Shown: piece by piece, positions 933 through 53,276 of the stretch
Layout: every line of letters begins with the position of its first letter
Numbering within the stretch: the stretch's first letter is position 1
Assembly: GCF_988242995.1 (NCBI RefSeq)
Contig: NZ_OZ547043.1
Strand: one strand, 5' to 3'
DNA: 64,000 bases
Program-made: the position numbers and the translations under genes
The notes under the pieces: model-generated
What the model was told of the DNA's origin: nothing
The model's database searches: none
What the model saw: only the letters and a program-made list of their open reading frames with translations

Positions 933-3525
933 TTGCATATTCCTTAGCCCAGCGGGGCAGTGATAATGTCTTAATAGCTGGCCATTCATCGGTATTCAGG
1001 CAGTCAGACAGGGTTCGCAGATTGCGGTGATATTCCTGTTGACCTGCCAGTTTTGCTTCTTCGCCCATCATGAAAATTTCAACCGGATAACGTCCGCATT
1101 CAATAGTTGTGCTGGCAACCAGAAAAACGAAAGTTGGCTGCACTCCAAACTGTGCTTCATAACCGTCACTGTAGAATGCATCCTGAACGTGATAGCGGTA
1201 GTCGTAATAAGCGGTTTTGAATCGTTGAATATCCGCCGTAGTTTTCACGTCCATGATCCAGTGAAATTCAGGGATAATTTTGTCCGGACGGCACCGACAC
1301 AAAATTCCTGTTTCAGGATCTTCCCAGTAAATTGATGATTCAGCGTGTCCGGCGCTTTCAACAAGCCATTGCCCCAGCGGCAAAGCCATAACGCTTTGAT
1401 ACATGAGTTCAATTTTCCGGCCTTCTTCCGCAGTGATAACCGTTTTTCCTGTGCTTGCGCATTCCATCAGAAACGCTTTCTCTTCTTCTTTTCCGGCGTT
1501 TGTACGGCGGTTAAATTCAGGTGCTACGATAAAGCGGTTACTGAATTCTTCCGGTTCAAGTACCCGGCAGTGGAAAGCAGTTCCTAAATCGAGCGTTTTT
1601 GTCTTTGTGGTGTCCACGGGGGCATTTTTACGCCACAAATATAGTGCCGGAGTATCAGCAATGTCATCGAGCTGAGACTTACTGATACCGGGACCCGCGT
1701 GGTAATTCTCATTCGAAATTCCGTAATAAATACCTGGCTCTATGTCTTCTACGATTACGGGATCTGCGACTTCGCCAGTTTCATCACTGCAATCGTGATG
1801 CGGATCGCTGCCAGCATTCTCATTGTGCGGATGTTCAGCGCCTTCCATTTCCTCCGGATCATTTTCCTTAGCTTCAACCTGACTCTCTTCATCGAATGTT
1901 TCCTGGTATGTTGCGTCGCCCATCACCGCACCACAGTCAGGGCAGTTATCCCCGCCAGTCTGGCCGCAGGCATTGCAGGCTATTTCCGGTTCCTGTTGCA
2001 CTACTGGCTCAGGTTGATTCATATCTGGGCTGGTTTTTTCCGTTTCTGGCTGGTTCTGGTACACACAATCGCGAGTCTGGATCCCCTTTACCCATTTCGG
2101 ATCGTTCGGGTCGCTAATTCCGTCAACAAATTCACCACGTGATGCAGCAAGCAATTTATCGGCATCGACAGGATTTTTTGATGGAATGTTTTTCCGGGCT
2201 TCATGGAGTTCTGCCCACAGTTCCTGATATTTCGCATCAACAGAATTTACCTGTGACTGAGCATCCAGCGGCTGCGTGTCCTGATGATGTTCAGTTGCGT
2301 CCGGTTCCATTGTTTCAGCCTCTCCCTGTTCAACTGCCGTTGTTCCAGATGGTTGCGGTTTTTCTTCATCATCCTGTTTTCCTTCTTCTGTTACTCGCTG
2401 CGGCATCGGGGCAGAGGAGCGACCGCAGGCAATATCCACGATTTCCGGATCAGGGTTGGCATGATCGGTTTCAGTCAGTACTTTGTTCAGATATTCAGTG
2501 ACGTGCGCGGGGATGACCTCGATCCCAATTGGTGCTTCTTTTACGGACGCAACCACGATGGCGCGGGAATAATCCAGCCCGCCAGGCATGGTGATGAATT
2601 TGTCGCGGAAAACAGAAAAGGGCGGTTTATTTTCAGCGATAATTTCCTCAATGCGTTTAGCGTGTGCCGGATGAAGGTTATAGATGTCCAGATCCATTGA
2701 ACGGGCCAGTACGCCAGTGGCTACGTCGCGCGCCAGTGACGTCAGATCGTGTACGAAACCTTCGCCGCGATCGGTGAGGTTTCCGCCGCCAGCATTAGCA
2801 CCGGAAGCCGTGCGAGTGATGTGTGAAACACGATTACCCTTCATCCACTCTTTTGTCAGCAGTCCTCGATCGGTGTAGTCAGCGTTCAGGTATGCTTCGA
2901 AAAAAGCAGTTATCAGTCCCAGGTTTGAATTACCAGGATTAGGGAAAACTTTGTCAGTGTCACGAACCAGTTTGTGGAGTTCGCGAATTTCCAGCGGGTC
3001 GAGCAGGCTGGTTTTGTGGGAAACAGCCAGGGCAGTAACAGCCGGTAGTTCTTCAGCCCGAGCAATGTGTAATGCCTGGAGTCCGTCGCGTGAAACGTGC
3101 GTTACCGGTTTTTCGCTGCCGTGTTGAGCAAGCCAACGAATGGGCAGTTCCTGGCCAGAAATTGGGAGTAGCATATTCTCCTCAATCTCAGTCATGTCTT
3201 CGCCGTTGACGTTGGTATTGCCTTGATAGTGAGCGTTGTCTGGTGCTGCTCCCGGTTTTAGTTCCCATGTCATGGAGTCTTTGCTGAGTTGATAGCGTTC
3301 ACTCCAGGTAAAATCGATCTCACCTTCAGTGGGCAGGTCATTAACGACAGGAAAATTCGTGGCAACAGCTTTAAAATAGCTGCTCAGTTTTTTACCTGAC
3401 TTAACGATCAGGTAGTCCAGAGTGGCACAGGTCGATTCAAAATCGTTGCTTGCCCACAGGACGACGTCAGGTTCACCGGATGATTTTTTCGCTTTCCGTA
3501 ACAGGAAGAGTGGTTTTGTGCTCAT
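925..3525 (-). CDS. recE: Exodeoxyribonuclease VIII (RecE)
   Basis: 866-aa [23 protein letters not shown]...; length and sequence match K-12 RecE; overlaps recT start as in Rac. Confidence 0.95.
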
Positions 3526-3624
3526 TGTTTTTTAACCTCAACTCAGATTAAAATTCGTTTTGTTCAGTGAATGATCTTGCCGGATACACACTGTTCATAG
3601 CCTGCGCCATACGCAGGCTATTTC

Positions 3625-4337
3625 TTGTGCACAGAAAACCCCCAGCTAGGCTGGGGGTTCCGGAAAGCTTTCAGCTTTGAGCCAGTTATTAAAACCCCTT
3701 TTGATTTGTTAAAACACTTTGCGGTCTGGCAACTGCAAGTGTCAAACAAGAAATCAAAAGGGGGTCCCAATGGGGAACGAAAAGAGCTTAGCGCACACCC
3801 GATGGAACTGTAAATATCACATAGTTTTTGCGCCAAAATACCGAAGACAGGTGTTCTACAGAGAGAAGCGTAGAGCAATAGGCAGTATTTTGAGAAAGCT
3901 GTGTGAGTGGAAAAGCGTACGGATTCTGGAAGCTGAATGCTGTGCAGATTATATCCATATGCTTGTGGAGATCCCGCCCAAAATGAGCGTATCCGGCTTT
4001 ATGGGATATCTGAAAGGGAAAAGCAGTCTGATGCTTTACGAGCAGTTTGGTGATTTGAAATTCAAATACAGGAACAGGGAGTTCTGGTGCAGAGGGTACT
4101 ACGTCGATACAGTGGGTAAGAACACGGCGAAGATACAGGATTACATAAAGCACCAGCTTGAAGAGGATAAAATGGGAGAGCAGTTATCGATTCCCTATCC
4201 GGGCAGCCCGTTTACGGGCCGTAAGTAACGAAGTTGGATGCAAATGTCAGATCGTGTGCGCCTGTTAGGGCGCGGCTGGTAAGAGAGCCTTATAGGCGCA
4301 TTTGAAAAACCTCCGGCTATGCCGGAGGATATTTATT
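3625..4337 (+). mobile_element. IS200-family insertion sequence (IS200/IS605 family, tnpA only), copy 1
   Basis: About 713 bp identical to 16039..16751; left-end perfect palindrome cccccagctaggctggggg; single Y1 transposase ORF; 3' end hairpin cctccggctatgccggagg. Confidence 0.9.
3770..4228 (+). CDS. tnpA: IS200 transposase TnpA (HUH/Y1 type)
   Basis: MGNEKSLAHTRWNCKYHIVFAPKYRRQVFY...; classic IS200 TnpA sequence with H-x-H motif (YIHMLVEIPP); SD aagggggt upstream. Confidence 0.9.
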   Translation: MGNEKSLAHTRWNCKYHIVFAPKYRRQVFYREKRRAIGSILRKLCEWKSVRILEAECCADYIHMLVEIPPKMSVSGFMGYLKGKSSLMLYEQFGDLKFKYRNREFWCRGYYVDTVGKNTAKIQDYIKHQLEEDKMGEQLSIPYPGSPFTGRK

Positions 4338-4613
4338 TCAGATTTCACCTTTTAATTTCATTGCAATTAGAGTTGCCAGAAATTCGGCTTTTTTTTCTGC
4401 GGGCAGATTCTTTCCGATATGCACCAGGCACATTTTTTTGACACCTTCATCAAGTGTTTTTACGTTGCCTGATGGACCATCGATATCAACCACAGTGAAT
4501 GGGGTTTCTTTATTTTCTGTTTTAATTACGTAGCCAATGCGCTTTCCTTCCAGATTCACCTCGTGAACAATGTCATCGGTAGTTACAACAGTGGCTTCAT
4601 AATTGGTAATCAT
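4338..4613 (-). CDS. racC: Rac prophage protein RacC
   Basis: 91-aa product MITNYEATVVTTDDIVHEVNLEGKRIGYV... matches K-12 RacC from memory; stop codon abuts IS200 right end. Confidence 0.8.
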   Translation of the reverse strand: MITNYEATVVTTDDIVHEVNLEGKRIGYVIKTENKETPFTVVDIDGPSGNVKTLDEGVKKMCLVHIGKNLPAEKKAEFLATLIAMKLKGEI

Positions 4614-4687
4614 GTTTTTCTCCTTAATTAAGGTTGAGCGAATACCTGCCATTTCTGGCATAAATTTAGTTTCGAATAGTCAATTAA

Positions 4688-4858
4688 TTAAAGTTCATGT
4701 GCCATCTGGTCTTTTTCGGCACAAGCTTCACTGCAATATTTTCTCGGTTCGTCTTTTGATAAAATCCCGTGCATGAAGTGAAGCATTCTTTCAATAGCTT
4801 TGCTTTCTTCAACGTCTTTTTTGCAAAGGTGGTAAGCACATTTTATTTTCTTAGTCAT
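4688..4858 (-). CDS. ydaE: Small Cys-rich protein YdaE (56 aa)
   Basis: Hand translation [56 protein letters not shown]; start overlaps kilR stop (TGATG); below ORF-track length cutoff. Confidence 0.7.
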   Translation of the reverse strand: MTKKIKCAYHLCKKDVEESKAIERMLHFMHGILSKDEPRKYCSEACAEKDQMAHEL

Positions 4859-5079
4859 CACCATGACTCCGCCTTTACAGGTAAACCATCACGACCGAGG
4901 AAGACTTTAATCATGCGGTCAGTAATGCATGTTTTTGTGGTCAGGTTACGAATATATAGTTTTCGCTTTTTAATATTGTTTGCCGAGGCAATATATGTCC
5001 GGCCTTCATGAAGAACATAATCGCCAGGAGTCACACACTGACGTGGTATTTCATCAGTTCCGAAGTGATGTGCAATCAT
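4858..5079 (-). CDS. kilR: Cell-division inhibitor KilR (FtsZ inhibitor)
   Basis: 73-aa product [38 protein letters not shown]... matches K-12 KilR. Confidence 0.85.
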
Positions 5080-5520
5080 AATTATCTCCATTTTTACAAA
5101 TGAACTTTGTTGATGCGGTGCCTGGTGCCTCCAGGTGACTGCAACCAGTTAACAATTACAGTCGGCTTTCCCACCCAAACCAATAAGGACTAACATGACT
5201 TTTAACTGTGCCACGTGCGCTTAGCCGCATTCACCGCATCACAAAATTCACTTTAAAAAGGGCGGACATCAGCCGAACTTCAAGAAAAAAACTGATGCCG
5301 CCAGGACTACACACAGCAATGTCGTTATTTACAACCGGAGGCGCACTCCCACCATTTAAATTTAACAGACAAGACCGACTCTTTATGGATATCGGAAATG
5401 CGCCTTCGTGTTGTGCCCGGTTTTATTTCACCACCTCCGGGCTTCGGTGGTCTCGGCTATACCCCTACAGCGAGAGCTTGTGTTAACATTTCAATACCCT
5501 TACAGTTGAGAGTTATTGAT

Positions 5521-6009
5521 ATGTTGGATGTATTTACTCCATTGTTGAAACTTTTTGCTAACGAGCCACTCGAAAGACTTATGTATACGATTATCATTTT
5601 TGGTCTCACTCTCTGGCTGATACCGAAAGAGTTTACTGCCGCATTCAATGCTTATACTGAAATACCTTGGCTCTTTCAGATTATCGTTTTTGCCTTTTCT
5701 TTCGTGGTCGCCATTTCCTTCTCAAGATTGCGAGCACATATTCAAAAGCATTATTCATTACTACCAGAGCAACGAGTATTGCTTCGTTTATCTGAGAAAG
5801 AAATCGCTGTATTTAAAGATTTCCTTAAAACAGGAAATCTTATTATCACTTCTCCTTGCCGTAACCCGGTTATGAAAAAATTAGAACGGAAGGGCATCAT
5901 TCAACATCAGAGTGATAGCGCAAACTGTTCTTATTATCTCGTCACCGAAAAATACTCCCATTTTATGAAGTTATTCTGGAACAGCAGGAGTAGACGTTTT
6001 AATCGTTAG
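5521..6009 (+). CDS. sieB: Superinfection exclusion protein B
   Basis: 162-aa product from MLDVFTPLLKLFANEPLERLMYTIIIFGLTLWLIP... matches K-12 SieB; membrane segments visible. Confidence 0.9.
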   Translation: MLDVFTPLLKLFANEPLERLMYTIIIFGLTLWLIPKEFTAAFNAYTEIPWLFQIIVFAFSFVVAISFSRLRAHIQKHYSLLPEQRVLLRLSEKEIAVFKDFLKTGNLIITSPCRNPVMKKLERKGIIQHQSDSANCSYYLVTEKYSHFMKLFWNSRSRRFNR

Positions 6010-6161
6010 CTTACTGTGTGCTTCTCCAACCATCGGCGCGCACCAGTTTCGGTTTTAAATGTTTTGCTTTTGGTATACGTCATGGCAGTGAACGTTCCAT
6101 CCTGGTTGGGGAACACGCCGCACACCAGGGATTCGTTGTTGCCGAGGTCGATTTTTTGCAT
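6006..6161 (-). CDS. ydaF: Rac prophage small protein YdaF (51 aa)
   Basis: Hand translation MQKIDLGNNESLVCGVFPNQDGTFTAMTYTKSKTFKTETGARRWLEKHTVS; 3' end overlaps sieB stop. Confidence 0.7.
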   Translation of the reverse strand: MQKIDLGNNESLVCGVFPNQDGTFTAMTYTKSKTFKTETGARRWLEKHTVS

Positions 6162-6171
6162 TTTGCGAATC

Positions 6172-6306
6172 TCACATCTTGTTGCTACGTATAGCGACTT
6201 CTGCCTGCCAGAGATCCCAGTCGTTGCTGCGTAAAGCCTGCACAGCCTGGTTGTAAGTGATACCGCAACAATCCATCAAATACTGAACTACTTCGTAATG
6301 CACCAT
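6172..6306 (-). CDS. ydaG: Rac prophage small protein YdaG (44 aa)
   Basis: Hand translation MVHYEVVQYLMDCCGITYNQAVQALRSNDWDLWQAEVAIRSNKM. Confidence 0.65.
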   Translation of the reverse strand: MVHYEVVQYLMDCCGITYNQAVQALRSNDWDLWQAEVAIRSNKM

Positions 6307-6475
6307 CTTATCTCTCCCCTTAACGCCGGGTGGCGGAACTAACTGCTGCACTGCAAAATTTGAATCCCGCCGTCATGTTCATACGCCTCGGGCTGGCTAC
6401 TTAACCCCTTACCACTGCCTGGTAACTCGAAGTATTGCCCGGCGTTCTGTGGGGCGGGGTGGGTGGTATGCTGGA

Positions 6476-6517
6476 ACTATAGGTAATGCCTAATTGATTG
6501 TCAATAGGCTATGCCTA
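6476..6517 (-). promoter_or_regulatory. Leftward early promoter (PL-like) with repressor operator half-sites
   Basis: Minus strand -35 TTGACA (6504..6499), 17-bp spacer, -10 TATAGT (6481..6476); palindrome TAGGCtatGCCTA at 6505..6517 and GCCTAAT half-site in the spacer. Confidence 0.55.
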
Positions 6518-6614
6518 ATGTTTTGAGCGTAACCTAATAGGTGATGGCGACAGCAGAAAGTGATGGGGGGGTTAAATAACGGAATCCAGGAGTTTTCCGT
6601 CAGACCATATAAGT

Positions 6615-7091
6615 TTAAGTTCCAGTTTTTGTGATGTTCTGGCTTTTCCGTTCAGATTCTAGAGCTTTCAGATACTTACCCACTTTCATTTCCATCGCTG
6701 CTATATAGGCGCGAACATCGTGGTCAACCCAATCTGGTTCTGTAGCATTTCCAGATAACAGGAAAGCTACAATCGCTCTTATTTCATCAGAGGCTGCTTG
6801 ATAAAGGTTGTTTATATCTAAAAGTTCACTTTTTGTATCTGAATTGGTGGGGGTTGGTATGGGGTATTCGTTAAGCCCCCAATGCTCTGGACCAACAACA
6901 TCAGAAAAGAAACGCCATAATTCTGGAAGTTTATCTTTACTTATAGAGCCTTTCTTAATCCAGTCATAAATTGATGGTGGTTGGACTTTGAAGTGGCGTG
7001 CGACCTCCGCCTTTGATTTGACGGATCCCGATGCGATTTTTTTGTTAATGGCCTGCTCTATCGCTCGGCCTAAGTCTTTACCACTAAGCAT
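6615..7091 (-). CDS. racR: Rac prophage repressor RacR
   Basis: 158-aa ORF MLSGKDLGRAIEQAINKKIASGS...; matches K-12 RacR; divergent from ydaS. Confidence 0.9.
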   Translation of the reverse strand: MLSGKDLGRAIEQAINKKIASGSVKSKAEVARHFKVQPPSIYDWIKKGSISKDKLPELWRFFSDVVGPEHWGLNEYPIPTPTNSDTKSELLDINNLYQAASDEIRAIVAFLLSGNATEPDWVDHDVRAYIAAMEMKVGKYLKALESERKSQNITKTGT

Positions 7092-7144
7092 TGCTTAATA
7101 TTCTCCTATGCGCATTACATTAGGCAATCCCTACCCTTACCGCA

Positions 7145-7188
7145 TTAGGCACAGCCTATTGACAATTGCGTTAGGCGTCGCCTAATAT
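7145..7188 (+). promoter_or_regulatory. Rightward early promoter (PR-like) with two operator palindromes
   Basis: Palindromes TTAGGCacaGCCTA (7145..7158) and TTAGGCgtcGCCTAA (7171..7185); -35 TTGACA 7159..7164 and -10 TAATAT 7183..7188 about 27 bp upstream of ydaS. Confidence 0.55.
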
Positions 7189-7214
7189 TTCTGTGTGTTT
7201 TTGGAGTTCATTCG

Positions 7215-7511
7215 ATGAAAAAAGAGAACTATTCATTCAAGCAAGCTTGTGCTGTTGTCGGTGGGCAATCAGCAATGGCTAGGCTTTTAGGTGTATCACC
7301 TCCAAGCGTAAATCAATGGATCAAAGGGGTACGTCAATTGCCTGCCGAGAGATGTCCAGCAATTGAACGTGCAACAAGAGGTGAGGTTCTGTGCGAAGAA
7401 CTTCGTCCTGATATTGACTGGTCATATTTACGACGTTCGGCATGTTGTTCGCAGAATATGTCAGTGAAGCAACTAAATGACAGTAACAAATCCTCATTTG
7501 ATCATACCTGA
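7215..7511 (+). CDS. ydaS: Cro-like HTH regulator YdaS
   Basis: 98-aa ORF MKKENYSFKQACAVVGGQSAMARLLGVSPPSVNQWIKG...; HTH motif; matches K-12 YdaS. Confidence 0.9.
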   Translation: MKKENYSFKQACAVVGGQSAMARLLGVSPPSVNQWIKGVRQLPAERCPAIERATRGEVLCEELRPDIDWSYLRRSACCSQNMSVKQLNDSNKSSFDHT

Positions 7512-7533
7512 AACATCAAGAGGCAAATGATTC

Positions 7534-7956
7534 ATGAAAATCAAGCATGAGCACATCGAATCAGTGTTGTTTGCCCTAGCAGCCGAAAAAGGGCAGGCAT
7601 GGGTAGCCAATGCAATTACTGAAGAATATCTGCGCCAGGGGGGCGGCGAATTGCCCCTGGTTCCAGGCAAGGACTGGAACAATCAGCAGAATATCTATCA
7701 CCGTTGGTTGAAAGGTGAAACGAAAACGCAAAGAGAAAAAATTCAGAAGCTGATCCCAGCAATTCTGGCAATCCTTCCGCGCGAGCTGCGTCACCGACTC
7801 TGCATCTTCGATACCCTGGAACGCCGTGCATTACTGGCGGCGCAGGAAGCGTTAAGTACGGCAATTGATGCGCATGATGATGCAGTCCAAGCCGTTTACC
7901 GGAAAGCGCATTTCAGCGGCGGCGGTTCTTCCGACGATTCTGTCATTGTTCATTAA
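7534..7956 (+). CDS. ydaT: Rac prophage protein YdaT
   Basis: 140-aa ORF matching K-12 YdaT from memory. Confidence 0.85.
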   Translation: MKIKHEHIESVLFALAAEKGQAWVANAITEEYLRQGGGELPLVPGKDWNNQQNIYHRWLKGETKTQREKIQKLIPAILAILPRELRHRLCIFDTLERRALLAAQEALSTAIDAHDDAVQAVYRKAHFSGGGSSDDSVIVH

Positions 7957-7968
7957 GCAAAAGTTTCC

Positions 7969-8826
7969 ATGCTGTTTGTGCTTATTCTAAGCCACCGGGC
8001 AGCATCATACGGGGCAATTATGGCCGCATTACCATACATGCAACTGTACATAGCTGATTACCTGGCTGACACCATGCATTTGTCAGCAGAGGAGCATGGT
8101 GCGTATTTGTTGCTGATGTTCAATTACTGGCAAACAGGAAAGCCAATACCTAAAAACAGGCTGGCAAAAATTGCCCGTCTGACTAACGAGCGATGGGCTG
8201 ATGTTGAACCATCCTTGCAGGAGTTTTTTTGCGATAACGGCGAGGAATGGGTGCATCTTCGGATTGAGGAAGATCTGGCATCAGTCAGGGAAAAATTAAC
8301 CAAAAAATCAGCCGCAGGAAAAGCATCTGTTCAGGCCAGAAGAAGCAGAAAGGAAGCAGATGTTCAAACAAAACAAGAGAGAAATTTAACAGGTGTTCAA
8401 ACAGATGTTGAAGTGGTGTTTGAACATGATGTCAACACAAAGGCAACTAATAAAGATACAGATAAAGATCTAAAAACAGATCCCCCCCTAAATCCCCCCC
8501 GGGGGAATCGAGGTGTCAAAAAGTTTGACCCTCTGGATATTGCTTTGCCGAACTGGATTTCTGTCTCGCTTTGGCGTGAGTGGGTTGAATTTCGCCAGGC
8601 ATTGCGAAAACCGATTCGAACGGAGCAGGGCGCTAACGGGGCGATACGGGAGCTGGAAAAATTCCGCCAGCAGGGTTTTTCACCTGAGCAGGTGATTCGA
8701 CACAGCATCGCCAATGAATACCAGGGCTTGTTCGCGCCGAAAGGTGTTCGACCTGAGACGTTACTCCGACAGGTTAACACCGTCTCGTTACCGGATAGTG
8801 CGATCCCGCCAGGCTTCAGGGGGTAA
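7969..8826 (+). CDS. ydaU: Rac prophage protein YdaU (DUF1376-like, replication region)
   Basis: 285-aa ORF; position and length as K-12 YdaU. Confidence 0.8.
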   Translation: MLFVLILSHRAASYGAIMAALPYMQLYIADYLADTMHLSAEEHGAYLLLMFNYWQTGKPIPKNRLAKIARLTNERWADVEPSLQEFFCDNGEEWVHLRIEEDLASVREKLTKKSAAGKASVQARRSRKEADVQTKQERNLTGVQTDVEVVFEHDVNTKATNKDTDKDLKTDPPLNPPRGNRGVKKFDPLDIALPNWISVSLWREWVEFRQALRKPIRTEQGANGAIRELEKFRQQGFSPEQVIRHSIANEYQGLFAPKGVRPETLLRQVNTVSLPDSAIPPGFRG

Positions 8827-8832
8827 CTGACC

Positions 8833-9579
8833 ATGAAAAATATTGCGACAGGCGATGTTCTTGAACGTATCCGCAGACTGGCCCCGTCACATGTAACCGC
8901 GCCATTCAAGACGGTAGCGGAGTGGCGCGAGTGGCAACTTTCCGAAGGCCAGAAACGTTGTGAGGAGATCAACCGTCAGAATCGTCAGTTGCGGGTGGAA
9001 AAAATTCTTAATCGCTCTGGCATCCAGCCATTGCACCGCAAATGCTCGTTTTCGAATTACCAGGTGCAGAACGAAGGGCAGCGATACGCGTTGAGTCAGG
9101 CGAAATCCATCGCTGATGAACTGATGACCGGGTGTACAAATTTTGCGTTCAGCGGAAAACCTGGTACCGGAAAAAACCATCTGGCGGCGGCTATCGGGAA
9201 TCGCCTGCTGAAAGATGGCCAGACAGTGATTGTGGTTACCGTGGCTGATGTCATGAGTGCCCTACACGCCAGCTATGACGACGGGCAATCAGGCGAAAAA
9301 TTTTTGCGGGAACTGTGCCAAGTGGATCTGCTGGTTCTTGATGAAATTGGCATTCAGCGCGAGACAAAAAACGAGCAGGTGGTGCTGCACCAGATTGTTG
9401 ATCGCCGGACAGCGTCGATGCGCAGCGTGGGGATGCTGACAAACCTGAATTATGAGGCCATGAAAACATTGCTCGGCGAGAGGATTATGGATCGCATGAC
9501 CATGAACGGCGGGCGATGGGTGAATTTTAACTGGGAGAGCTGGCGTCCGAATGTCGTCCAGCCAGGAATTGCGAAGTAA
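8833..9579 (+). CDS. ydaV: DnaC-like replication/helicase-loader ATPase YdaV
   Basis: 248-aa ORF with Walker [16 protein letters not shown] and Walker B LLVLDEIG; matches K-12 YdaV. Confidence 0.9.
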
Positions 9580-9601
9580 TTTTTACCGGGAGAAAAATTT
9601 A

Positions 9602-10363
9602 ATGGAGACTGTTTTTGACGCACTGAAAGCAATGGGAAAAGCCACATCCATAGAACTTGCTGCGCGACTTGATATCAGCCGTGAAGAAGTGCTGAACGAA
9701 CTATGGGAACTGAAAAAGGCTGGTTTCGTTGATAAAAGCGCGTACACCTGGCGTGTGGCTGATAACAACGTTCAGCAGGAACAGCCAGCGCCGGCAGAAC
9801 TGCCGGAAGAAACTACCACGGCAACAGTCGCGAAAATTTCAGAGAGCGATTTAACTGCGACGATTGAACAACGTGGTCCACTAACTGCGGATGAACTGGC
9901 TACGTTGTTCGGTACCACATCCCGCAAAGTGGCTTCAACGCTGGCAATGGCAATCAGCAAAGCTCGTCTGATTCGCGTTAATCAGAACGGTAAATTTCGT
10001 TACTGCATGCCGGGCGGTAATTTACCAGCAGAGCCGAAAGCTGCATCGGTAGCGGAAACAGATGGTAAAGCCTTTCCTCAGCTAGCCGGTGTTGCGTTAC
10101 CAGTACAGGAAGCTGCAACACAGGAAGATATTAAAACAGAAACTGTGGCGGACATTGTGCAGTCGTTGCCATCGTTTACTGAAACGCAAGCGGATAACCT
10201 GATTTTACCATCGCTGCATATGGCAAACCGTGAACTGCGTCGGGCGAAAAATCATGTCCAGAAGTGGGAGCGAGTCTGCGCCGCGCTGCGGGAGCTGAAC
10301 AAGCACCGGGATATTGTTCGACAGATTTTCGATTCCTCCAGTCGTATTGTGTCGGAAAAGTGA
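9602..10363 (+). CDS. Phage protein with N-terminal winged-helix-like domain (intact counterpart of K-12 ydaW remnant?)
   Basis: ORF 9551..10363; likely start ATG 9602 ([30 protein letters not shown]...); the earlier in-frame start at 9551 would overlap ydaV. Confidence 0.5.
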
Positions 10364-10378
10364 TTGCCGGAGGCACCT

Positions 10379-10810
10379 ATGGCAAAAGTATTTACACCAG
10401 AAGAGCGGGAAAAAATTAAAGGGCAGGTTGTTGAACTTGTACGTCTGAGCGGTCGCGAGACGTTACGGGCTCTGGAGGCTAAAACCGGTGCATCAAGGTA
10501 TTACATAAGCACTCTCGCCAGAGAACTGGTCGCCAGTGGTGATGTTTACAATTCAGGCTACGGATTATTCCCGTCTGAGCAGGCTCGTAAGGACTGGCAA
10601 AACGCCCGCAAAAAACTATCCAGGGCAAAGGTGAAAAAAACGGTTGTGGTTGATCCTGACCTTATCTGGTCATTACCAGACGGAGAAATACGCCGCTACG
10701 ACAGGCGCCTGAATATAATCTGTCGCGAGTGCCGGAAAAGCGAAGTTATGCAGCGTGTACTGGCATTTTACCAGAGTAATTTCAGGAGGTTGTCTGGTGA
10801 GCACGATTAA
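10379..10810 (+). CDS. Hypothetical phage protein (143 aa)
   Basis: ORF with ATG at 10379 preceded by GGAGG; no family recognised. Confidence 0.5.
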   Translation: MAKVFTPEEREKIKGQVVELVRLSGRETLRALEAKTGASRYYISTLARELVASGDVYNSGYGLFPSEQARKDWQNARKKLSRAKVKKTVVVDPDLIWSLPDGEIRRYDRRLNIICRECRKSEVMQRVLAFYQSNFRRLSGEHD

Positions 10811-10835
10811 CTACTAGGGGGGATAACAATAAAAT

Positions 10836-10855
10836 AAAGCCTCCTAGGAGGCTTT
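10836..10855. terminator. Bidirectional intrinsic terminator between convergent genes
   Basis: Perfect palindrome aaagcctcctaggaggcttt flanked by T-runs on both strands; overlaps MTase stop codon. Confidence 0.6.
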
Positions 10856-11884
10856 GATTATATTAAGCAAATGTTTTCCAATCGTTTCAGACATCTTCGG
10901 AGGGACCGCATTTCCTATTTGACGAGCCCGAGATTGCAAAGAACCAATAAATTTATAATCCAAAGGAAATGTTTGTAGACACGCTGCTTCACGAACCGAT
11001 ATTGCTCGATTTTGTGTTGGATGTCCAAAACGTCCATTTGAATAGCTAATACAACGAGTTGTTAGTCCGCTGGCTGGTTTGTCCCAACTCAAACGTCCAT
11101 ATACGTCTGTATGCCCTTTATGGTTACGATGGCATTCTAAAATCAATTCATCTGGCCAAAATTCTCGACTTCCACCTTCAGGAGTGCATTTTATTCTACG
11201 TAAATTAAGCTCTGATAAGCGTGCAGCTTCATGATCAGGAATACTATTATGCTTTTCTCCTGCTTCTATCTTCGGTAAATTAGCGATCCAGTCCTTTACT
11301 GTTGAATAGGGAGTATTTCCAACCCCATGTGTAGGAGAAGGCAATGCGACATAAAAATCCTTGGATGCAATGAGCACTAATCTTTCTCGCGTCTGTGGTA
11401 CACCGTACCACGCAGCTGGCATTACTTTATAATCTACACTATATCCCTTTGATGAAAGCATTTCTAAAAACATCATGAATGTTCCTTCATTTTTGTTAAA
11501 CTTTTGCATTCCTGGCACGTTTTCAACAAAAATAAAATCAGGCATATAATGCTCTACAAAGCGACTGAATTCCTTTAATAGATCTAATCGTGGATCATCA
11601 TTTTTCTTATTTGAGTTTTGCTTAGAGTACGGTTGACAAGGCGCACATCCTGAAAAAAGAATGTAATCATTACGATGTTTTTTTACTAACTTGTTTATGG
11701 CATTGTTGTCGATTAACCTAATGTCCGAGTTAATAAAAGCAGCCTGCGGGAAATTTGCACGAAATGAACTGGCTGCATCAACGTCGAAATCGAGGCCAAA
11801 AACAATATCCATTCCAGCTTGATGGAAACCTTGGCTGGTTCCACCACAACCGGAAAAGAAGTCAAACACTTTGATTTTTTTCAT
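10844..11884 (-). CDS. DNA (cytosine-5)-methyltransferase
   Basis: Motif I FDFFSGCGGTSQGF, motif IV GCAPCQPYS (catalytic Cys), motif VI FVENVPGM, motif VIII QTRER, motif X GNAVPP; ATG 11884 with GAGGG SD; ORF track extends to a GTG at 11908; visibly AT-rich. Confidence 0.85.
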   Translation of the reverse strand: MKKIKVFDFFSGCGGTSQGFHQAGMDIVFGLDFDVDAASSFRANFPQAAFINSDIRLIDNNAINKLVKKHRNDYILFSGCAPCQPYSKQNSNKKNDDPRLDLLKEFSRFVEHYMPDFIFVENVPGMQKFNKNEGTFMMFLEMLSSKGYSVDYKVMPAAWYGVPQTRERLVLIASKDFYVALPSPTHGVGNTPYSTVKDWIANLPKIEAGEKHNSIPDHEAARLSELNLRRIKCTPEGGSREFWPDELILECHRNHKGHTDVYGRLSWDKPASGLTTRCISYSNGRFGHPTQNRAISVREAACLQTFPLDYKFIGSLQSRARQIGNAVPPKMSETIGKHLLNIIKAS

Positions 11885-11907
11885 TTTTCCCTCTGCATCC
11901 AGAATCA

Positions 11908-13737
11908 CTACCTAATGATACCACGGTCAAGAGCCTGAGTAATTATTTTTCTTATTTTTATAAATTCAGGCAATTCATTTTTAAGTCTTGCGGTCATCAT
12001 TTGTTGGAGGCAAAAAATTTCCTCTGCATTTACTTCTTCTTTATCATACAGGTGTTGCGCTAATAATCTTATTTGATTCTTATACAGTTCTGGATCATTA
12101 GAACTCCAGGTCTGTGAATCAATTATTTCTTTTTCACTTGGCGTAATTGCCTTTTCAATGAGTAATTGTTCGGGAGTATCAAATGGTAAATACTTCACTT
12201 TATTGAATGCATACTCAAGCACTTGCCTTTTGAGTCTATTAGATTCTTGTTCATTTTTTTTGCCATTACTACCACTGGCATTGATAATTAACTCGCAACC
12301 ATAATATTTGCACATTGTATTAACTAAATCAGCATCAGCAATTTCACTAATTCTTACTGGTTTTATTTTTTTGTTTTTATCACCATCAAGTAAAAACAAA
12401 ATATCATTGCGTTCTACCACAGCGTAACTGGGAAGATGCTTGCTTAAAATGGTCTCCGAACCACCTGGTATATAACTTACACTAAATGATAAGCTTAATC
12501 TTTCATCATTTTTAATCGCTTTATCTATAATTGCTTTAGCTAATTTATCTTCTACAATTATTGTTTTCTTGTTAATATCATGCCCTAGCTCTATAAAAGC
12601 TTCATCCGGTGCTATATTTTGAACTATTTTAGCTGTTTCACTCTCTTCATCAAAAACAAATAATTTAATGGCATCTTTGGGAAGAGTGTTCACAATAACA
12701 GGAGAATGGGTTGATATTACCACTTGATGTTTTTTCTGCTCAACAATAGAGTACAGAACATCCATCATCCTTTTTTGTGCACCAGGGTGAAGTGAAACTT
12801 CTGGTTCGTCAAGAAGAATTAATGAATTAGGTTTGGCCGAATAAATATTGAGTATTAGTGAAACTATTGCAAATTCACCACTTCCAGCAAACGCTTCTGT
12901 ATAGTTCAACTTATCAGTTGAAAGTAAAGCGGTTCCTCCTCTGGTTCCAAATAACCGATGCTCAAGAAATTTAATGACTTTATATTTTTTCCCTAATATA
13001 AATGAGACGTGCTCAACTAGTTCTGGCGCCAAGGTTATATTTTTAACAATGGTTTCCGCCCCCCAGAGTCTTAAATTACTTAGCTTTTCATCAAAAGCTT
13101 TCTTTATATATTTAGATTTGCTTCTGATATAGTCTTGCTTTGTAATTAATACACCACTCTTCTTCTTTCTTAATTTAAAATCAGAGTGATACATACATCT
13201 ATCAAATGCACTTATTTCCGATCTGAAATCTAGGAAAACCAATCCCTTCTTGATTTTTTTCCATCTGGTTGCATTACTATTAGCACCCAGATCATCCGAA
13301 ATACTCTCCATGTTATCACCAACAGATGGTCGACTTGTTTCCCAATAATCGATTGTTTTCTTGGTAGCATTGATACGTGCTTGGAGTATTTCAACTAAAC
13401 GGCCATCAGCATTTTTATATCCATATATATATCTAGGTTTAAGAGAACTGCCATCAGCAAGTTTTAGGTCAGGAAACTCATCTGTTTCAGTTGTGAACCA
13501 ATAACGAGTTATATTTTTACCATGTGGGCAACCAAATAGCGCTTTGATAACAGAACTTTTATTAGTTCCATTTTTTCCTACTAAAGCCGTTATAGGGAAC
13601 TGAAAATCGATCCTTGCATTCTGCTCTATATTTTTAAAGTATGGAAAACGGATATGTTGTATGAATGGTTCAAATTCACCGTTTTTTAACGCGCACTGGA
13701 GTGTTCGAATTTTGCTCTTGTATGCGGAAGTGCTCAT
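11908..13737 (-). CDS. OLD-family-like nuclease: N-terminal ABC-type ATPase plus C-terminal Toprim-like domain (609 aa)
   Basis: Walker A LVGKNGTNKSS; signature-like AGSGEFAIVSL; Walker B/D-loop LILLDEPEVSLHP; H-loop VISTHSP; C-terminal Toprim-like E (TIIVEDKLAK) and DxD (LFLLDGDKN); stop lies 23 bp from MTase ATG; visibly AT-rich. Confidence 0.7.
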   Translation of the reverse strand: MSTSAYKSKIRTLQCALKNGEFEPFIQHIRFPYFKNIEQNARIDFQFPITALVGKNGTNKSSVIKALFGCPHGKNITRYWFTTETDEFPDLKLADGSSLKPRYIYGYKNADGRLVEILQARINATKKTIDYWETSRPSVGDNMESISDDLGANSNATRWKKIKKGLVFLDFRSEISAFDRCMYHSDFKLRKKKSGVLITKQDYIRSKSKYIKKAFDEKLSNLRLWGAETIVKNITLAPELVEHVSFILGKKYKVIKFLEHRLFGTRGGTALLSTDKLNYTEAFAGSGEFAIVSLILNIYSAKPNSLILLDEPEVSLHPGAQKRMMDVLYSIVEQKKHQVVISTHSPVIVNTLPKDAIKLFVFDEESETAKIVQNIAPDEAFIELGHDINKKTIIVEDKLAKAIIDKAIKNDERLSLSFSVSYIPGGSETILSKHLPSYAVVERNDILFLLDGDKNKKIKPVRISEIADADLVNTMCKYYGCELIINASGSNGKKNEQESNRLKRQVLEYAFNKVKYLPFDTPEQLLIEKAITPSEKEIIDSQTWSSNDPELYKNQIRLLAQHLYDKEEVNAEEIFCLQQMMTARLKNELPEFIKIRKIITQALDRGIIR

Positions 13738-13885
13738 TGTTTACTAAAGTCCATAATAGGCTATTAACAGGTTGAGGATGACATGATAACGATTTTTAAT
13801 GCAGATAAAAGAGGTTTGTTGGTTAGCACACAACAGAAAAAGTGACCTTACCGCTTGAACGAAAGGTAAGGGTAAGTAGGCTGTG

Positions 13886-14038
13886 ATGCAGCAAAAGACG
13901 ATGTTAATCGCCCTGATTGTCATCTGTATTACCGTCGTTGTGATGGCACTGGTAACAAGGAAAGACTTCTGCGAGGTACAAATCCGAACCGGTCAGACGG
14001 AGGTCGCTGTCTTCACAGCTTACGAACCTGAGGAGTGA
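13886..14038 (+). CDS. hok: Hok/Gef-family type I toxin (50 aa)
   Basis: Hand translation MQQKTMLIALIVICITVVVMALVTRKDFCEVQIRTGQTEVAVFTAYEPEE; close to K-12 HokD/RelF as I recall; GC-rich hairpin ggcgagggagaaatccctcgcc downstream. Confidence 0.8.
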   Translation: MQQKTMLIALIVICITVVVMALVTRKDFCEVQIRTGQTEVAVFTAYEPEE

Positions 14039-14503
14039 GAGACCAGGCGAGGGAGAAATCCCTCGCCACCTCTGATGAGTCAGGCATCCTCAACGCACCC
14101 GCACTTAACCAACTTTGGCGGGTATATTTTATCTGTGAATATTTTTATAAAAATAATGCCCACGCACAGCATAAAACAAAAAGTATTACAGATAAAAAAG
14201 GAACGTAATGTGCAGATTTGTTGTTTTCCATATTTACTCACCTTAATATGATTAACCCTAATAGGGTTGTTATTTCAGCGGTTTTCAAATGAGATATTAT
14301 GGTGATCTGGCAGATTTGCATAACATTAAAATTTAATTTGTTTAACCGCTTTTAATAATAAGCGTTGTTTGTATCCCAGCAATCTGTTGTTTGGTTTTTA
14401 TTCCATTAAGGTGGGGCTTTACACTGGAGCCAGTTTATTTATACTTCATACGTCAGCCTGAACAACTGGCATCTGCTGCGCTGCGCCATCGAGAGATTAA
14501 GAA

Positions 14504-15103
14504 ATGGCGCATATACAACTGGTCAAACAAACCTCTTCCGGATTACTTCTCCCGGCGACGCCGGAGAGTTGTGATTTTCTGCATCAAATCAAAATAGGCG
14601 AGTGGATACACGCAGACTTTAAGCGTGTGCGTAACTACGCATTCCACAAGCGTTTTTTCAAACTCCTGCAACTGGGATTCGATTACTGGACTCCGGTCGG
14701 TGGGGCGATCACGCCTCGCGAACGAGAACAGCTGTCTGGTTTCGTTGATTACCTGTGCGAATCAGTTGGTCGGGAACACACGCCAGCCCTGAGTGATGCC
14801 GCAGAGCAATATCTGAATACAGTTGCGACACGCAGAACCCGGGATACGGCATTGCTAAAGTCGTTTGAGGCTTTTCGCGAGTGGGTAACCATTCAGGCTG
14901 GATTTTACACCGAACATTTTTATCCGGACGGTAGCCGCGGGCGTCGGGCAAAATCTATCGCTTTTGCGAATATGGACGAAACCGAGTTTCAGCAGGTTTA
15001 TAAATCTGTTCTGAATGTGCTGTGGAACTGGATTCTGTTCCGTAAATTTTCCTCTCCGGAACAAGTCGAAAATGTGGCCGCGCAGCTGCTGGAGTTTGCG
15101 TAA
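14504..15103 (+). CDS. Phage protein, DUF1367-like (nin-region)
   Basis: 199-aa ORF MAHIQLVKQTSSGLLLPATPESCDFLHQIKIGEW...; family call from memory and position before the YbcO-like gene. Confidence 0.5.
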   Translation: MAHIQLVKQTSSGLLLPATPESCDFLHQIKIGEWIHADFKRVRNYAFHKRFFKLLQLGFDYWTPVGGAITPREREQLSGFVDYLCESVGREHTPALSDAAEQYLNTVATRRTRDTALLKSFEAFREWVTIQAGFYTEHFYPDGSRGRRAKSIAFANMDETEFQQVYKSVLNVLWNWILFRKFSSPEQVENVAAQLLEFA

Positions 15104-15393
15104 TGGTGGATTTACGTAAAGCGGCGCGGGGGCAGATGTGCACCGTCAGAATTCCTGGCTACTGCAATCACAATCCCGAAACATCTGTGCTGGCGCATTA
15201 CAGGCTGGCGGGGACGTGCGGAACAGCGACAAAACCACACGATATGCAGGCAGCGATTGCCTGTAGCTCATGCCACGATTTAATCGACGGGCGGGTAAAA
15301 ACCAGCGATTACACCAAAGAAGAATTACGCCTGATGCATGCAGAAGGTGTTTTTCGCACACAAGAAATCTGGAGAAAGGAAGGTTATTTATGA
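15103..15393 (+). CDS. YbcO-like putative nuclease (DUF1364)
   Basis: 96-aa ORF MVDLRKAARGQMCTVRIPGYCNHNPETSVLAH...CSSCHDLID; resembles DLP12 YbcO; Cys/His motifs. Confidence 0.7.
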   Translation: MVDLRKAARGQMCTVRIPGYCNHNPETSVLAHYRLAGTCGTATKPHDMQAAIACSSCHDLIDGRVKTSDYTKEELRLMHAEGVFRTQEIWRKEGYL

Positions 15394-15932
15394 TTTACCC
15401 AACAAATACAGGCAAAAGCGGGGAACACCTTCGTCTCACCACGCTGGAAAGTGTCTGGATTCAGGGAAAACTGCGCATGTGGGGGCGCTGGTCGTATATT
15501 GGCGGCGGTAAGACGGGAAATATGTTTAACCAGTTGCTGGCATCCAAAAAATTGACGAAAACAGCCGTCAATGAAGCCCTGCGCAGGATGAAAAAAGCGG
15601 GAATAGAGAAACCTGAGCTGGAAGCGTTTTTGCGAGAGATGATCAATGGCAAGCAAAAGACCTGGCTGGCGCATTGTACTGATGCAGAGGCGTTATGTAT
15701 TGATAGAGTCATAAGTGAGGTGCTGGCAGAGCATCCTGGATTGATTAGTGTCCTCCGGCAACGGTATGAAGGACGGGGGATGACTAAGCGCAAAATGGCT
15801 GAATTGCTAAATGATGCACATCCTGAGTGGTGTTTTAGCACATGCGAAAAGCGAATTGCTAATTGGTTGGCTGTTGCTGAGTATGCCCTATATATTCCCA
15901 TGCGAGAATTATTTGCTCAAAAAATAGCTTGA
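15390..15932 (+). CDS. Putative late-gene antitermination protein (Q-like) by position
   Basis: 180 aa from MIYPTNTGKSGEHLRLTT...; last gene of the nin block before the lysis cassette; family not confirmed. Confidence 0.4.
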   Translation: MIYPTNTGKSGEHLRLTTLESVWIQGKLRMWGRWSYIGGGKTGNMFNQLLASKKLTKTAVNEALRRMKKAGIEKPELEAFLREMINGKQKTWLAHCTDAEALCIDRVISEVLAEHPGLISVLRQRYEGRGMTKRKMAELLNDAHPEWCFSTCEKRIANWLAVAEYALYIPMRELFAQKIA

Positions 15933-16038
15933 TTTTTTACGCATAAACTGCTTCAATTCCGGTATGCTTCGCAAAGCTGTATCGCGAGGCGAACCAAGCG
16001 CATGAACTTTACCAGAACCCGCCATTGAGCGGGTTTTG

Positions 16039-16751
16039 TTGTGCACAGAAAACCCCCAGCTAGGCTGGGGGTTCCGGAAAGCTTTCAGCTTTGAGCCAGT
16101 TATTAAAACCCCTTTTGATTTGTTAAAACACTTTGCGGTCTGGCAACTGCAAGTGTCAAACAAGAAATCAAAAGGGGGTCCCAATGGGGAACGAAAAGAG
16201 CTTAGCGCACACCCGATGGAACTGTAAATATCACATAGTTTTTGCGCCAAAATACCGAAGACAGGTGTTCTACAGAGAGAAGCGTAGAGCAATAGGCAGT
16301 ATTTTGAGAAAGCTGTGTGAGTGGAAAAGCGTACGGATTCTGGAAGCTGAATGCTGTGCAGATTATATCCATATGCTTGTGGAGATCCCGCCCAAAATGA
16401 GCGTATCCGGCTTTATGGGATATCTGAAAGGGAAAAGCAGTCTGATGCTTTACGAGCAGTTTGGTGATTTGAAATTCAAATACAGGAACAGGGAGTTCTG
16501 GTGCAGAGGGTACTACGTCGATACAGTGGGTAAGAACACGGCGAAGATACAGGATTACATAAAGCACCAGCTTGAAGAGGATAAAATGGGAGAGCAGTTA
16601 TCGATTCCCTATCCGGGCAGCCCGTTTACGGGCCGTAAGTAACGAAGTTGGATGCAAATGTCAGATCGTGTGCGCCTGTTAGGGCGCGGCTGGTAAGAGA
16701 GCCTTATAGGCGCATTTGAAAAACCTCCGGCTATGCCGGAGGATATTTATT
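16039..16751 (+). mobile_element. IS200-family insertion sequence, copy 2 (identical to copy 1)
   Basis: Identical to 3625..4337 (offset 12414 bp), same orientation; inserted between Q-like gene and lysis region. Confidence 0.9.
16184..16642 (+). CDS. tnpA: IS200 transposase TnpA
   Basis: Identical to the 3770..4228 product. Confidence 0.9.
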   Translation: MGNEKSLAHTRWNCKYHIVFAPKYRRQVFYREKRRAIGSILRKLCEWKSVRILEAECCADYIHMLVEIPPKMSVSGFMGYLKGKSSLMLYEQFGDLKFKYRNREFWCRGYYVDTVGKNTAKIQDYIKHQLEEDKMGEQLSIPYPGSPFTGRK

Positions 16752-16864: not shown

Positions 16865-17434
16865 ATGAGAGAACTACCTAAAGATTATTTTTTAGGAGTA
16901 GATGATGAGCTCGTCGATTATCTTGAAAAACAAGGGGAAGAGACGATACGAGAGATTCATCTTTCTAACAAAACCAATGTTGAGAATGGATACAAACTTC
17001 TGAACATTCAGATTGTTGGAATTGGTTCATCTTTTTTATTGCTGACACAGAAAACTAATTTCGATTTTCTCACCGCCGGAATTACCACATTTACATTACT
17101 ATGGACATGGTGCGCCATTTACTTGGTATGTACTGGTTTATCTGTGAAGGTTAGGGGCCTGATCAATGCCCCTCCTGATCATCTATATCATGAAAAATAT
17201 AAGGATATGGAGCCCTCGAGCTTTAAAATATTCGCTGATGCAGGATATTTAGGACCTGATAAGTTATTGCCGCTTATACGAAGGTATCGCCTTGTTGACT
17301 TGAGTGATACAGCAAGAGAGTTACTGTTGGAAAATGAGAAAATCCGCACGAGTCTCGATAAAGCAAGGATGTATACCATCCTTGCTCCGGTAGCGGCGAT
17401 GTTTATCTCGGCTGTTTTTTTATATGTTCAATGA
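16865..17434 (+). CDS. Hypothetical membrane protein (189 aa, about three predicted TM segments), AT-rich moron
   Basis: Hydrophobic stretches LLNIQIVGIGSSFLLL, GITTFTLLWTWCAIYLVCTGL and MYTILAPVAAMFISAVFLYV; visibly AT-rich versus neighbours. Confidence 0.55.
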   Translation: MRELPKDYFLGVDDELVDYLEKQGEETIREIHLSNKTNVENGYKLLNIQIVGIGSSFLLLTQKTNFDFLTAGITTFTLLWTWCAIYLVCTGLSVKVRGLINAPPDHLYHEKYKDMEPSSFKIFADAGYLGPDKLLPLIRRYRLVDLSDTARELLLENEKIRTSLDKARMYTILAPVAAMFISAVFLYVQ

Positions 17435-52910: not shown

Positions 52911-53138
52911 TGAATAAATCCTTTAGTTATTTTATTTGCCTTTTCATCCCCATTTTGGGGAGTGAAAGCATCCTAAAGGAGAAGTTCAGTTAGCCGATAA
53001 ATATCATTTGTTACGCCTTAAGTAAAACCTTAATCAAATAATTCTTCTGAAATGATAATAAGTCTGGTGAATGTATTGAAGATAATACATACAAAATAAA
53101 AATTATACTTTTAATTTGCTATACGTTATTCTGCGCGG

Positions 53139-53248
53139 GTTATATGCCTTTATTGTCACAGATTTTATTTTCTGTTGGGCCATTGCGTTGCTACTGATTT
53201 TCCAACAAATAATGAGACAAGCCCGAACAGTCGTTCGGGCTTTTTTTT
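53139..53248 (+). ncRNA. micC: MicC small regulatory RNA
   Basis: GTTATATGCCTTTATTGTCACAGATTTTATTTTCTGTTGGGCCATTG... ending in hairpin gcccgaacagtcgttcgggc plus T-run; matches K-12 micC from memory; between ompN and ydbK. Confidence 0.8.
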
Positions 53249-53276
53249 AGAATTGGATAATCCTTATCCAGTGCAT

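Follow-up and report, generated by a model that had tools for sequence, protein, structure and literature searches.

Two identical IS200C copies behind terminator-like hairpins in a Rac-like lambdoid prophage

IS200C of Escherichia coli and Salmonella encodes a transposase (TnpA) of 152 amino acids (aa) and possesses a left-end terminator hairpin, a stem-loop in the 5′ untranslated region (5′UTR) of tnpA and a right-end hairpin. IS200 was first found as a polar insertion, and its left-end hairpin has been described as a bidirectional Rho-independent terminator (PMC4513863). The substrate of the IS200/IS605 family is single-stranded DNA in the replication fork, in which gaps of about 1.5–2 kb are available (PMC5027513). 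For IS608 and ISDra2, the mechanistic models of this family, the Y1 HUH fold of the transposase, subterminal hairpins and insertion in one orientation only, 3′ of a short conserved sequence, TTAC or TTGAT, have been described. A 2025–26 preprint reports an excess of terminator-like sequences just upstream of insertion sequences (ISs), most strongly in the IS200/IS605 family, and an association with terminators is at least partly known already. Here we analyze two IS200C copies in a Rac-like lambdoid prophage, contained in a stretch of 64,000 nucleotides (nt) of contig NZ_OZ547043.1 (NCBI RefSeq assembly GCF_988242995.1), the whole of which we refer to as the window. In our view, the two copies very probably arose when one IS200C variant inserted twice, separately and recently in evolutionary terms, into an otherwise native and structurally complete prophage.

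When compared to these systems, the window's element matches IS200C in its hairpins and 5′UTR stem-loop and has the same TnpA but for one residue: a tyrosine replaces the first histidine of the HUH motif. Both insertion sites are new. With IS608 and ISDra2 it shares the Y1 HUH fold, the subterminal hairpins and the fixed orientation 3′ of a short flank; however, this flank is a T-rich run ending in TT behind a host hairpin, and tnpB is absent. The prophage has the gene order recT-recE-racC-ydaE-kilR-sieB-ydaF-racR-ydaS-ydaT-ydaU-ydaV in common with Rac of E. coli K-12, including trkG downstream and a racC–recE junction with 99.6% identity. In K-12 Rac, in contrast, the racC–recE site is empty, and the window additionally contains Q-like, lysis, terminase, head and tail genes, a methyltransferase/nuclease module and, at the right, sitABCD.

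The IS200C copies and their empty sites

A base-by-base self-comparison of the window at an offset of 12,414 yields a single unbroken match of 713 nt with 0 mismatches, in which positions 3625–4337 equal 16039–16751. The sequences flanking this block are dissimilar between the copies on either side. Both copies lie on the + strand, i.e. in direct orientation, 12,414 bp apart. A search of the whole window for repeats detected no third IS200 copy, and the prophage contains no IS-sized repeat besides these two. A preliminary description of this DNA, made from its sequence, had reported a 713-bp IS200 with tnpA as sole gene and terminal hairpins, present as two identical direct copies 12414 bp apart, all of which our analysis bears out, except that 713 nt is the length of the identical block and not of the insert. 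The empty sites define the latter: in the racC–recE intergenic sequence of K-12, CAGGCTATTTCTT is directly followed by TCAGATT (junction TTTCTT/TCAG), and in the spacer between the Q-like gene and the 189-aa open reading frame (ORF) of TA8571, GAGCGGGTTTTGTT is directly followed by GTTTCTGG (junction TTTGTT/GTTT), so that the true insert comprises 711 nt. The TT at the junction ends the element as well as the flank and is assignable to neither, whereby copy 1 may be read as 3627–4337 or 3625–4335, and insertion without duplication is indistinguishable from a 2-bp TT duplication.

With the former reading, copy 1 (3627–4337, + strand, 711 nt) lies between the start of recE (3525, minus strand) and the stop of racC (4338, minus strand), 0–2 nt beyond the racC stop and about 100 nt upstream of the recE start. 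Copy 2 (16041–16751, + strand, 711 nt, 100% identical to copy 1) is located 106–108 nt beyond the stop of a DUF1133 Q-like gene (15390–15932, + strand; PHROG 753 'anti-termination protein Q-like', E = 1.9e-79) and upstream of the 189-aa ORF (16865–17434), which precedes the lysis cassette with its holin, endolysin and Rz genes. Neither copy disrupts a gene. The annotation of the window thereby agrees with the positions that had previously been proposed for both copies and with the gene content proposed for the segment between them.

The only ORF of the element is tnpA (3770–4228 in copy 1, 16184–16642 in copy 2, both + strand), which encodes a Y1 transposase of 152 aa. It scores 142 bits (142.1) against the NCBIfam model NF033573 (transpos_IS200, cutoff 55), and PF01797 (Y1_Tnp) is on record for the exact protein. 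Among solved structures, TnpA is best related to Y1 HUH transposases, namely those of Sulfolobus, IS608 and ISDra2, with phmmer E-values of 2.6e-18 to the IS608 TnpA (2a6m) and 1.3e-15 to that of ISDra2 (2xm3). Both copies also contain a full-model match to the Rfam family STnc490 (RF01405; 3637–3760 and 16051–16174), which represents the IS200 left end plus the tnpA 5′UTR, at 144.6 bits versus a gathering score of 56. Within this match resides the left-end hairpin (3639–3657 and 16053–16071), CCCCCAGC-TAG-GCTGGGGG, after which TTTTCTGT comes next on the minus strand. A terminator scan identified the right-end hairpin (4310–4328 and 16724–16742), CCTCCGGC-TAT-GCCGGAGG, which is terminator-like on both strands and continues with TTTTTC on the minus strand. 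The hairpins are subterminal, and the repeat searches reported no terminal inverted repeats. The closest relatives on the DNA level are 99.7% identical, carry the RefSeq label 'IS200/IS605-like element IS200C family transposase' and occur in CFT073 and many other E. coli strains; some match to the element is found in 3,097 of 5,426 complete E. coli genomes. Judged by these matches, the element is by descent IS200C of the IS200/IS605 family.

The same prophage with both sites empty is present in the near-identical E. coli strains LST200A and EFF60, i.e. in relatives of the kind that the preliminary description had proposed for comparison. Positions 1–21000 of the window align with LST200A in three colinear blocks of 99.8–99.9% identity, and the sole structural differences are the two 711-nt inserts. 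All contigs encoding an identical RecE have racC directly beside recE with the site empty. For site 2, nine other E. coli loci match the reconstructed empty sequence at 221 of 221 positions, and among the matches listed for the 189-aa ORF, 10 of 10 places have the empty 221-nt spacer. We further employed a chimeric query that places the IS between copy 1's left flank and copy 2's right flank and which an occupied site would cover to 77% and a deletion product to 100%. Among the 5,426 complete genomes the best coverage was 58%, and hence neither an occupied site nor a deletion product was detected. Look-ups of the exact proteins (RecE, the 189-aa ORF and the TnpA with tyrosine at position 61, Y61) likewise returned no contig with IS200 at either site. 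Going by these comparisons, both insertions are genuine and precise and, within the data searched, confined to this strain. Since no occupied site is found in the relatives or the complete genomes, the insertions appear to be young.

Target sites and transcriptional consequences

Each copy directly follows a hairpin with a T-rich tail. Target 1 (3597–3626, + strand), recovered by the terminator scan, consists of the GC-rich hairpin TAGCCTGCG-CCATA-CGCAGGCTA and the tail TTTCTT, with a fold of −18.1 kcal/mol, and the left end of copy 1 abuts its final TT. This sequence is terminator-like on the + strand only, antisense to racC and recE, and is uninterrupted in K-12 and LST200A. Target 2 (16016–16040, + strand) has the same strand sense as the Q-like gene and consists of the hairpin AACCCGC-CATTGA-GCGGGTT and the tail TTTTGTT, with a fold of −16.1 kcal/mol; it is empty in TA8571 and others. 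To these two sites we added ten from other genomes, namely fghA/frmA, galR/aas, bamD/raiA, rplT/pheM, tynA/feaB, icd-side/ymgL, fadR/ycgB, kdsA/ldr, lambda tR2 and lacY/lacZ. At all 12 distinct IS200C sites, the left end is directly preceded on its 5′ side by a hairpin whose T-rich tail ends in TT, and the orientation of the element relative to it is fixed in all 12. In comparison, a hairpin of this kind is found within 2–9 nt of only 8.4% of the window's T-rich positions ending in TT, so that its presence at 10 of 10 sites (the first ten) corresponds to P ~2e-11. Relative to the flanking genes, hairpin and T-tract run antisense at site 1 and at fghA/frmA, which, together with the fixed orientation, speaks for the DNA itself being recognized and not for mere survival of insertions behind genes. 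So clean a rule, with insertion at the final TT of the T-tract of a terminator, could be of interest to transposon specialists and has a bearing on how harm to the host is avoided by a 'dormant' element.

Mechanistically, we propose that IS200 moves via the single-strand 'peel-and-paste' route of the IS200/IS605 family and that its left end would be joined 3′ of a T-rich sequence ending in TT, 6–10 nt behind a GC-rich hairpin, a geometry which equals the T-tract of an intrinsic terminator. The + strand of the prophage would present two such sites, one past racC and one at a tR′-like terminator after the Q-like gene. Target choice would then set the positions as well as the shared orientation, and the 'bracketing' of the early region would be a by-product that was not selected. 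The right end of the IS is itself shaped like a target, with a hairpin followed by ATATTTATT, and AAAA stands 5′ of both IS hairpins. From these two features we infer that a guide (AAAA) may pair with the T-tract as in IS608. Since both target hairpins lie on the + strand, the two copies have the same orientation, and the orientation of the target hairpins explains this better than the direction of replication does. We had also considered orientation by replication strand with seven sites placed on the K-12 map; about five fit a rule by which the active strand lies on the lagging-strand template and two do not, and we do not rely on this comparison.

Two of the additional sites lie within well-known operons. 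E. coli 7/2 carries IS200C in the lacZ–lacY spacer (lacY/lacZ), behind a hairpin with a T-rich tail, and a further copy resides in the frmA–frmB spacer (fghA/frmA), likewise after a hairpin with a T-rich tail. Both insertions could be polar on the downstream gene.

For copy 1, a transcript that runs on the minus strand from racC to recE meets the right-end hairpin with UUUUUC first and the left-end hairpin with UUUUCUGU second. Because two minus-strand terminators are thus placed between racC and recE, copy 1 is likely polar on recET unless early-left transcription is antiterminated. The insulation of recET by the IS200 terminators, which had been suggested before, is plausible and mechanistically reasonable, and recET may be uncoupled from early-left transcription.

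For copy 2 a different outcome is expected. The hairpin of target 2 and its TTTTGTT tail span 84–108 nt beyond the stop of the Q-like gene, and both the terminator and its T-tract are preserved in the presence of the IS. From its position and shape we infer that target 2 may be the tR′-like terminator of the late-operon leader; a promoter scan yielded one modest candidate, at 15867–15896, inside the 3′ end of the Q-like gene. Polymerase modified by Q is by definition resistant to terminators. It should therefore read through copy 2, whose additional terminators should matter little, and we expect little effect on late expression. The earlier proposal that copy 2 interrupts late read-through appears weak, considering that a tR′-like terminator already stood just before the insertion and that IS200 is also found in a lambdoid tR2. 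IS200 is present in three of 50,697 phage records, two of which, deposited as lambdoid phages, are Lambda_ev058 (stretch 3443–3510) and PhiR63_2, the only Escherichia phage records among them. In both, the insertion point of IS200 falls exactly into the tR2 T-tract of lambda, which lies between ren and ninB, with CAGGCCTTTTTATT before and GTGCACAG after this point. Like copy 2, these copies stand directly behind a terminator T-tract and are co-oriented with an operon that depends on antitermination. However, they occupy tR2 in the early-right operon under N control, have the common histidine at position 61 (H61) and are known from deposited genomes, whereas copy 2 occupies a tR′-like site after a Q-like gene.

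The TnpA allele and the origin of the two copies

Codon 61 of tnpA (3950–3952 and 16364–16366) reads TAT (Tyr) in both copies versus CAT (His) in the common allele, which changes CCAD-H-IHMLV of the common IS200C protein to CCAD-Y-IHMLV. In an alignment, Y61 coincides with the first histidine of the HUH motif of IS608 (2a6m), 2ec2 and 2f4f, all of which read H-I-H, while the window's protein reads Y61-I-H63. The pair of HUH histidines provides two of the three ligands to the essential Mg2+ (PMC6006769). The catalytic tyrosine Y125 and Q129 are intact, whereas the intact HUH motif of an autonomous IS200 is lacking in both copies. Hence, both copies are, as far as the substitution allows one to predict, probably non-autonomous and were probably mobilized in trans by an intact IS200 elsewhere in the genome.

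The underlying change, C to T at IS position 324, is rare: among 20,395 complete-genome records, 324T occurs in a single one, a decayed copy on a plasmid, while the neighboring synonymous variant 371C is common on H61 copies (885 records). Two single-nucleotide polymorphisms, common to both copies, separate them from the nearest IS200C of a complete genome. In a large protein collection, the exact Y61 protein is found on 25 contigs, compared with at least 1,000 for H61. In draft assemblies, Y61 copies are present mid-contig at several other chromosomal sites, of which those at rplT/pheM and icd-side/ymgL are nucleotide-identical to the window's IS. We had also asked whether Y61 is under purifying selection, as its copies differ by synonymous changes only, but rejected this because copies collected by exact protein match are a biased sample. 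A rare allele which alters a metal-binding histidine of the transposase and yet stands in two apparently fresh insertions could likewise be of interest to transposon specialists.

How the two copies arose can be explained in several ways. That they are an artefact of assembly, in the form of a duplicated or misplaced repeat, might be suspected since they are exactly identical, assembly or polishing can paste in a repeat consensus, and neither insertion occurs in any other genome searched. Each copy, however, is embedded in unique sequence, the sequence of the empty site is restored exactly at both junctions, and both copies obey a target rule drawn from ten independent sites in other genomes, which a misassembly would not; we thus regard an artefact as extremely improbable. 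An equally slim chance is given to a compound mobile unit, in which copy 1 would supply the left end and copy 2 the right end for the transposition of a 13.1-kb block. While direct orientation on the same strand is the geometry that a single-strand transposase needs, the block belongs to the native prophage backbone and occupies its native position, colinear with the IS-free LST200A and EFF60, and none of the complete genomes searched contains this block flanked by IS200, so that the locus does not behave as a composite transposon. Moreover, excision of 13 kb is very unlikely for a family that uses single-stranded DNA at the fork with its short gaps, and the HUH substitution in TnpA argues against it as well. 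Gene conversion between older insertions is a somewhat better candidate to explain the identity of the copies, as polymorphisms among IS200C copies are mosaic, with positions 92, 371 and 485 assorting independently and 371C frequent on H61 copies. Yet neither site is occupied in the complete genomes or the closest relatives, which speaks for young insertions, and two insertions plus two conversions are less parsimonious than two insertions. Conversion is hence improbable.

The same low weight is assigned to a selected domestication, by which the insertions would have been kept because they cripple the prophage, insulating recET and blocking the late genes, and because they pre-arm a deletion of the early region. 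Such a scenario is favored by the bidirectional action of the IS200 terminators, by the expected polarity of copy 1 on recET, and by the fact that a deletion would remove kilR, ydaS/T and Q along with racR and leave a silent remnant. Both sites are, however, merely canonical IS200 targets, and no coding sequence is hit; selection for domestication therefore need not be invoked. Copy 2 stands behind a terminator that antitermination already overrides, and phage genomes have been deposited with IS200 at tR2. In addition, the insertions are confined to one strain and show no indication of having spread or become fixed, and the genomes searched contain no deletion product. As for the deletion itself, the 711-bp direct repeats would permit a rare homologous loss of 12.4 kb, like any repeat pair. 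It could remove racC through the Q-like gene together with one IS copy and leave recET beside one IS200 and the lysis and structural genes. The RecA-dependent deletion put forward in the preliminary description is thus plausible but generic to any pair of direct repeats, and the 12.4-kb segment may be flagged as losable via repeat recombination.

Our preferred explanation of two separate, recent insertions directed by terminator-like targets also has points against it. The mid-contig, nucleotide-identical Y61 copies elsewhere mean that Y61 could still be active, and a helper copy is required if TnpA-Y61 is dead. The preference for hairpins could in part reflect survival of harmless insertions instead of direct recognition. 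Furthermore, the tR′ label of target 2 derives from position and shape, with the single modest promoter candidate beside it, and polarity on recET as well as read-through at copy 2 are both predictions.

As posed, the finding is routine, i.e. a known IS at two intergenic sites of a prophage. Its practical yield consists of two strain-specific junctions usable for typing, and it marks the strain as non-K-12. A wider reading, which we consider possible but rather unlikely, combines several claims: TnpA directly recognizes single-stranded terminator DNA, copies at phage terminators are transcribed upon induction, and the Y61 lineage is still active. Recognition would then concern a hairpin whose T-rich tail of 6–10 nt ends in TT, the geometry of the element's own right end, and would amount to a structure-guided 'safe-harbour' targeting. 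Copies at terminators antiterminated by N or Q, such as copy 2 and the tR2 copy of Lambda_ev058, would upon induction be deprived of the protection by their left-end terminator and would be transcribed just while the phage DNA replicates. An active Y61 ('YUH') lineage would in turn explain both the two fresh insertions and the identical mid-contig Y61 copies in other strains.

Prophage context

The native prophage segment between the copies (4338–16040) extends from racC to the Q-like gene and is 99.9–100.0% identical to, and colinear with, LST200A, EFF60 and 25 other genomes. The bracketed 11,701 bp encode racC, ydaE, kilR, sieB, ydaF, racR, ydaS/T/U/V, DUF1627 and DUF977 proteins, a Dcm-type methyltransferase, an ATP-dependent nuclease, hok, DUF1367 and DUF1364 proteins and the Q-like protein, and include the racR/ydaS immunity region as well as the replication genes ydaU and ydaV. 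The prophage is of the Rac type, being colinear with the LST200A order intR-xisR-rcbA-ralR-recT-recE-racC through to trkG. On contigs encoding an identical RecE, int adjoins a gene with a PF01171 domain, which we take to be ttcA. That the strain is not K-12, as had been noted before, is corroborated by the Q-like, lysis, terminase, head and tail genes and sitABCD of the window and by the empty site in K-12 Rac. To our knowledge, K-12 is devoid of any IS200.

The cytosine methyltransferase (10844–11908, minus strand, 354-aa ORF) and the nuclease (11908–13737, minus strand, 609 aa, with AAA_15/AAA_21 domains) form a module that sits between the DUF977 (Ren-like) gene and hok. The best PADLOC matches of the nuclease are HEC-04 and the ATPase-Toprim family. 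At the same position, other strains carry cargo with BstA-like, SIR2, YobI-ATPase or ORC/CDC6-like domains, and Rac-like prophages appear to have a variable slot for defence genes here.

To the right, the window contains a match to the small RNA MicC (53136–53256, + strand, Rfam, 124 bits), and colinearity with LST200A places the chromosomal genes sitABCD, uspF, ompN and nifJ/ydbK on this side of the prophage. Considering MicC and these right-hand genes, the prophage is placed at the usual Rac locus. In the tail-fibre region the identity to LST200A falls to 83–94%, and at 43668–44045, where the LST200A tail-fibre genes align, a 189-nt unit is present in two tandem copies of 83% identity. The tail genes of LST200A, in turn, contain an IS110-family insertion (about 1.4 kb), which the window lacks at the corresponding position (~37698).

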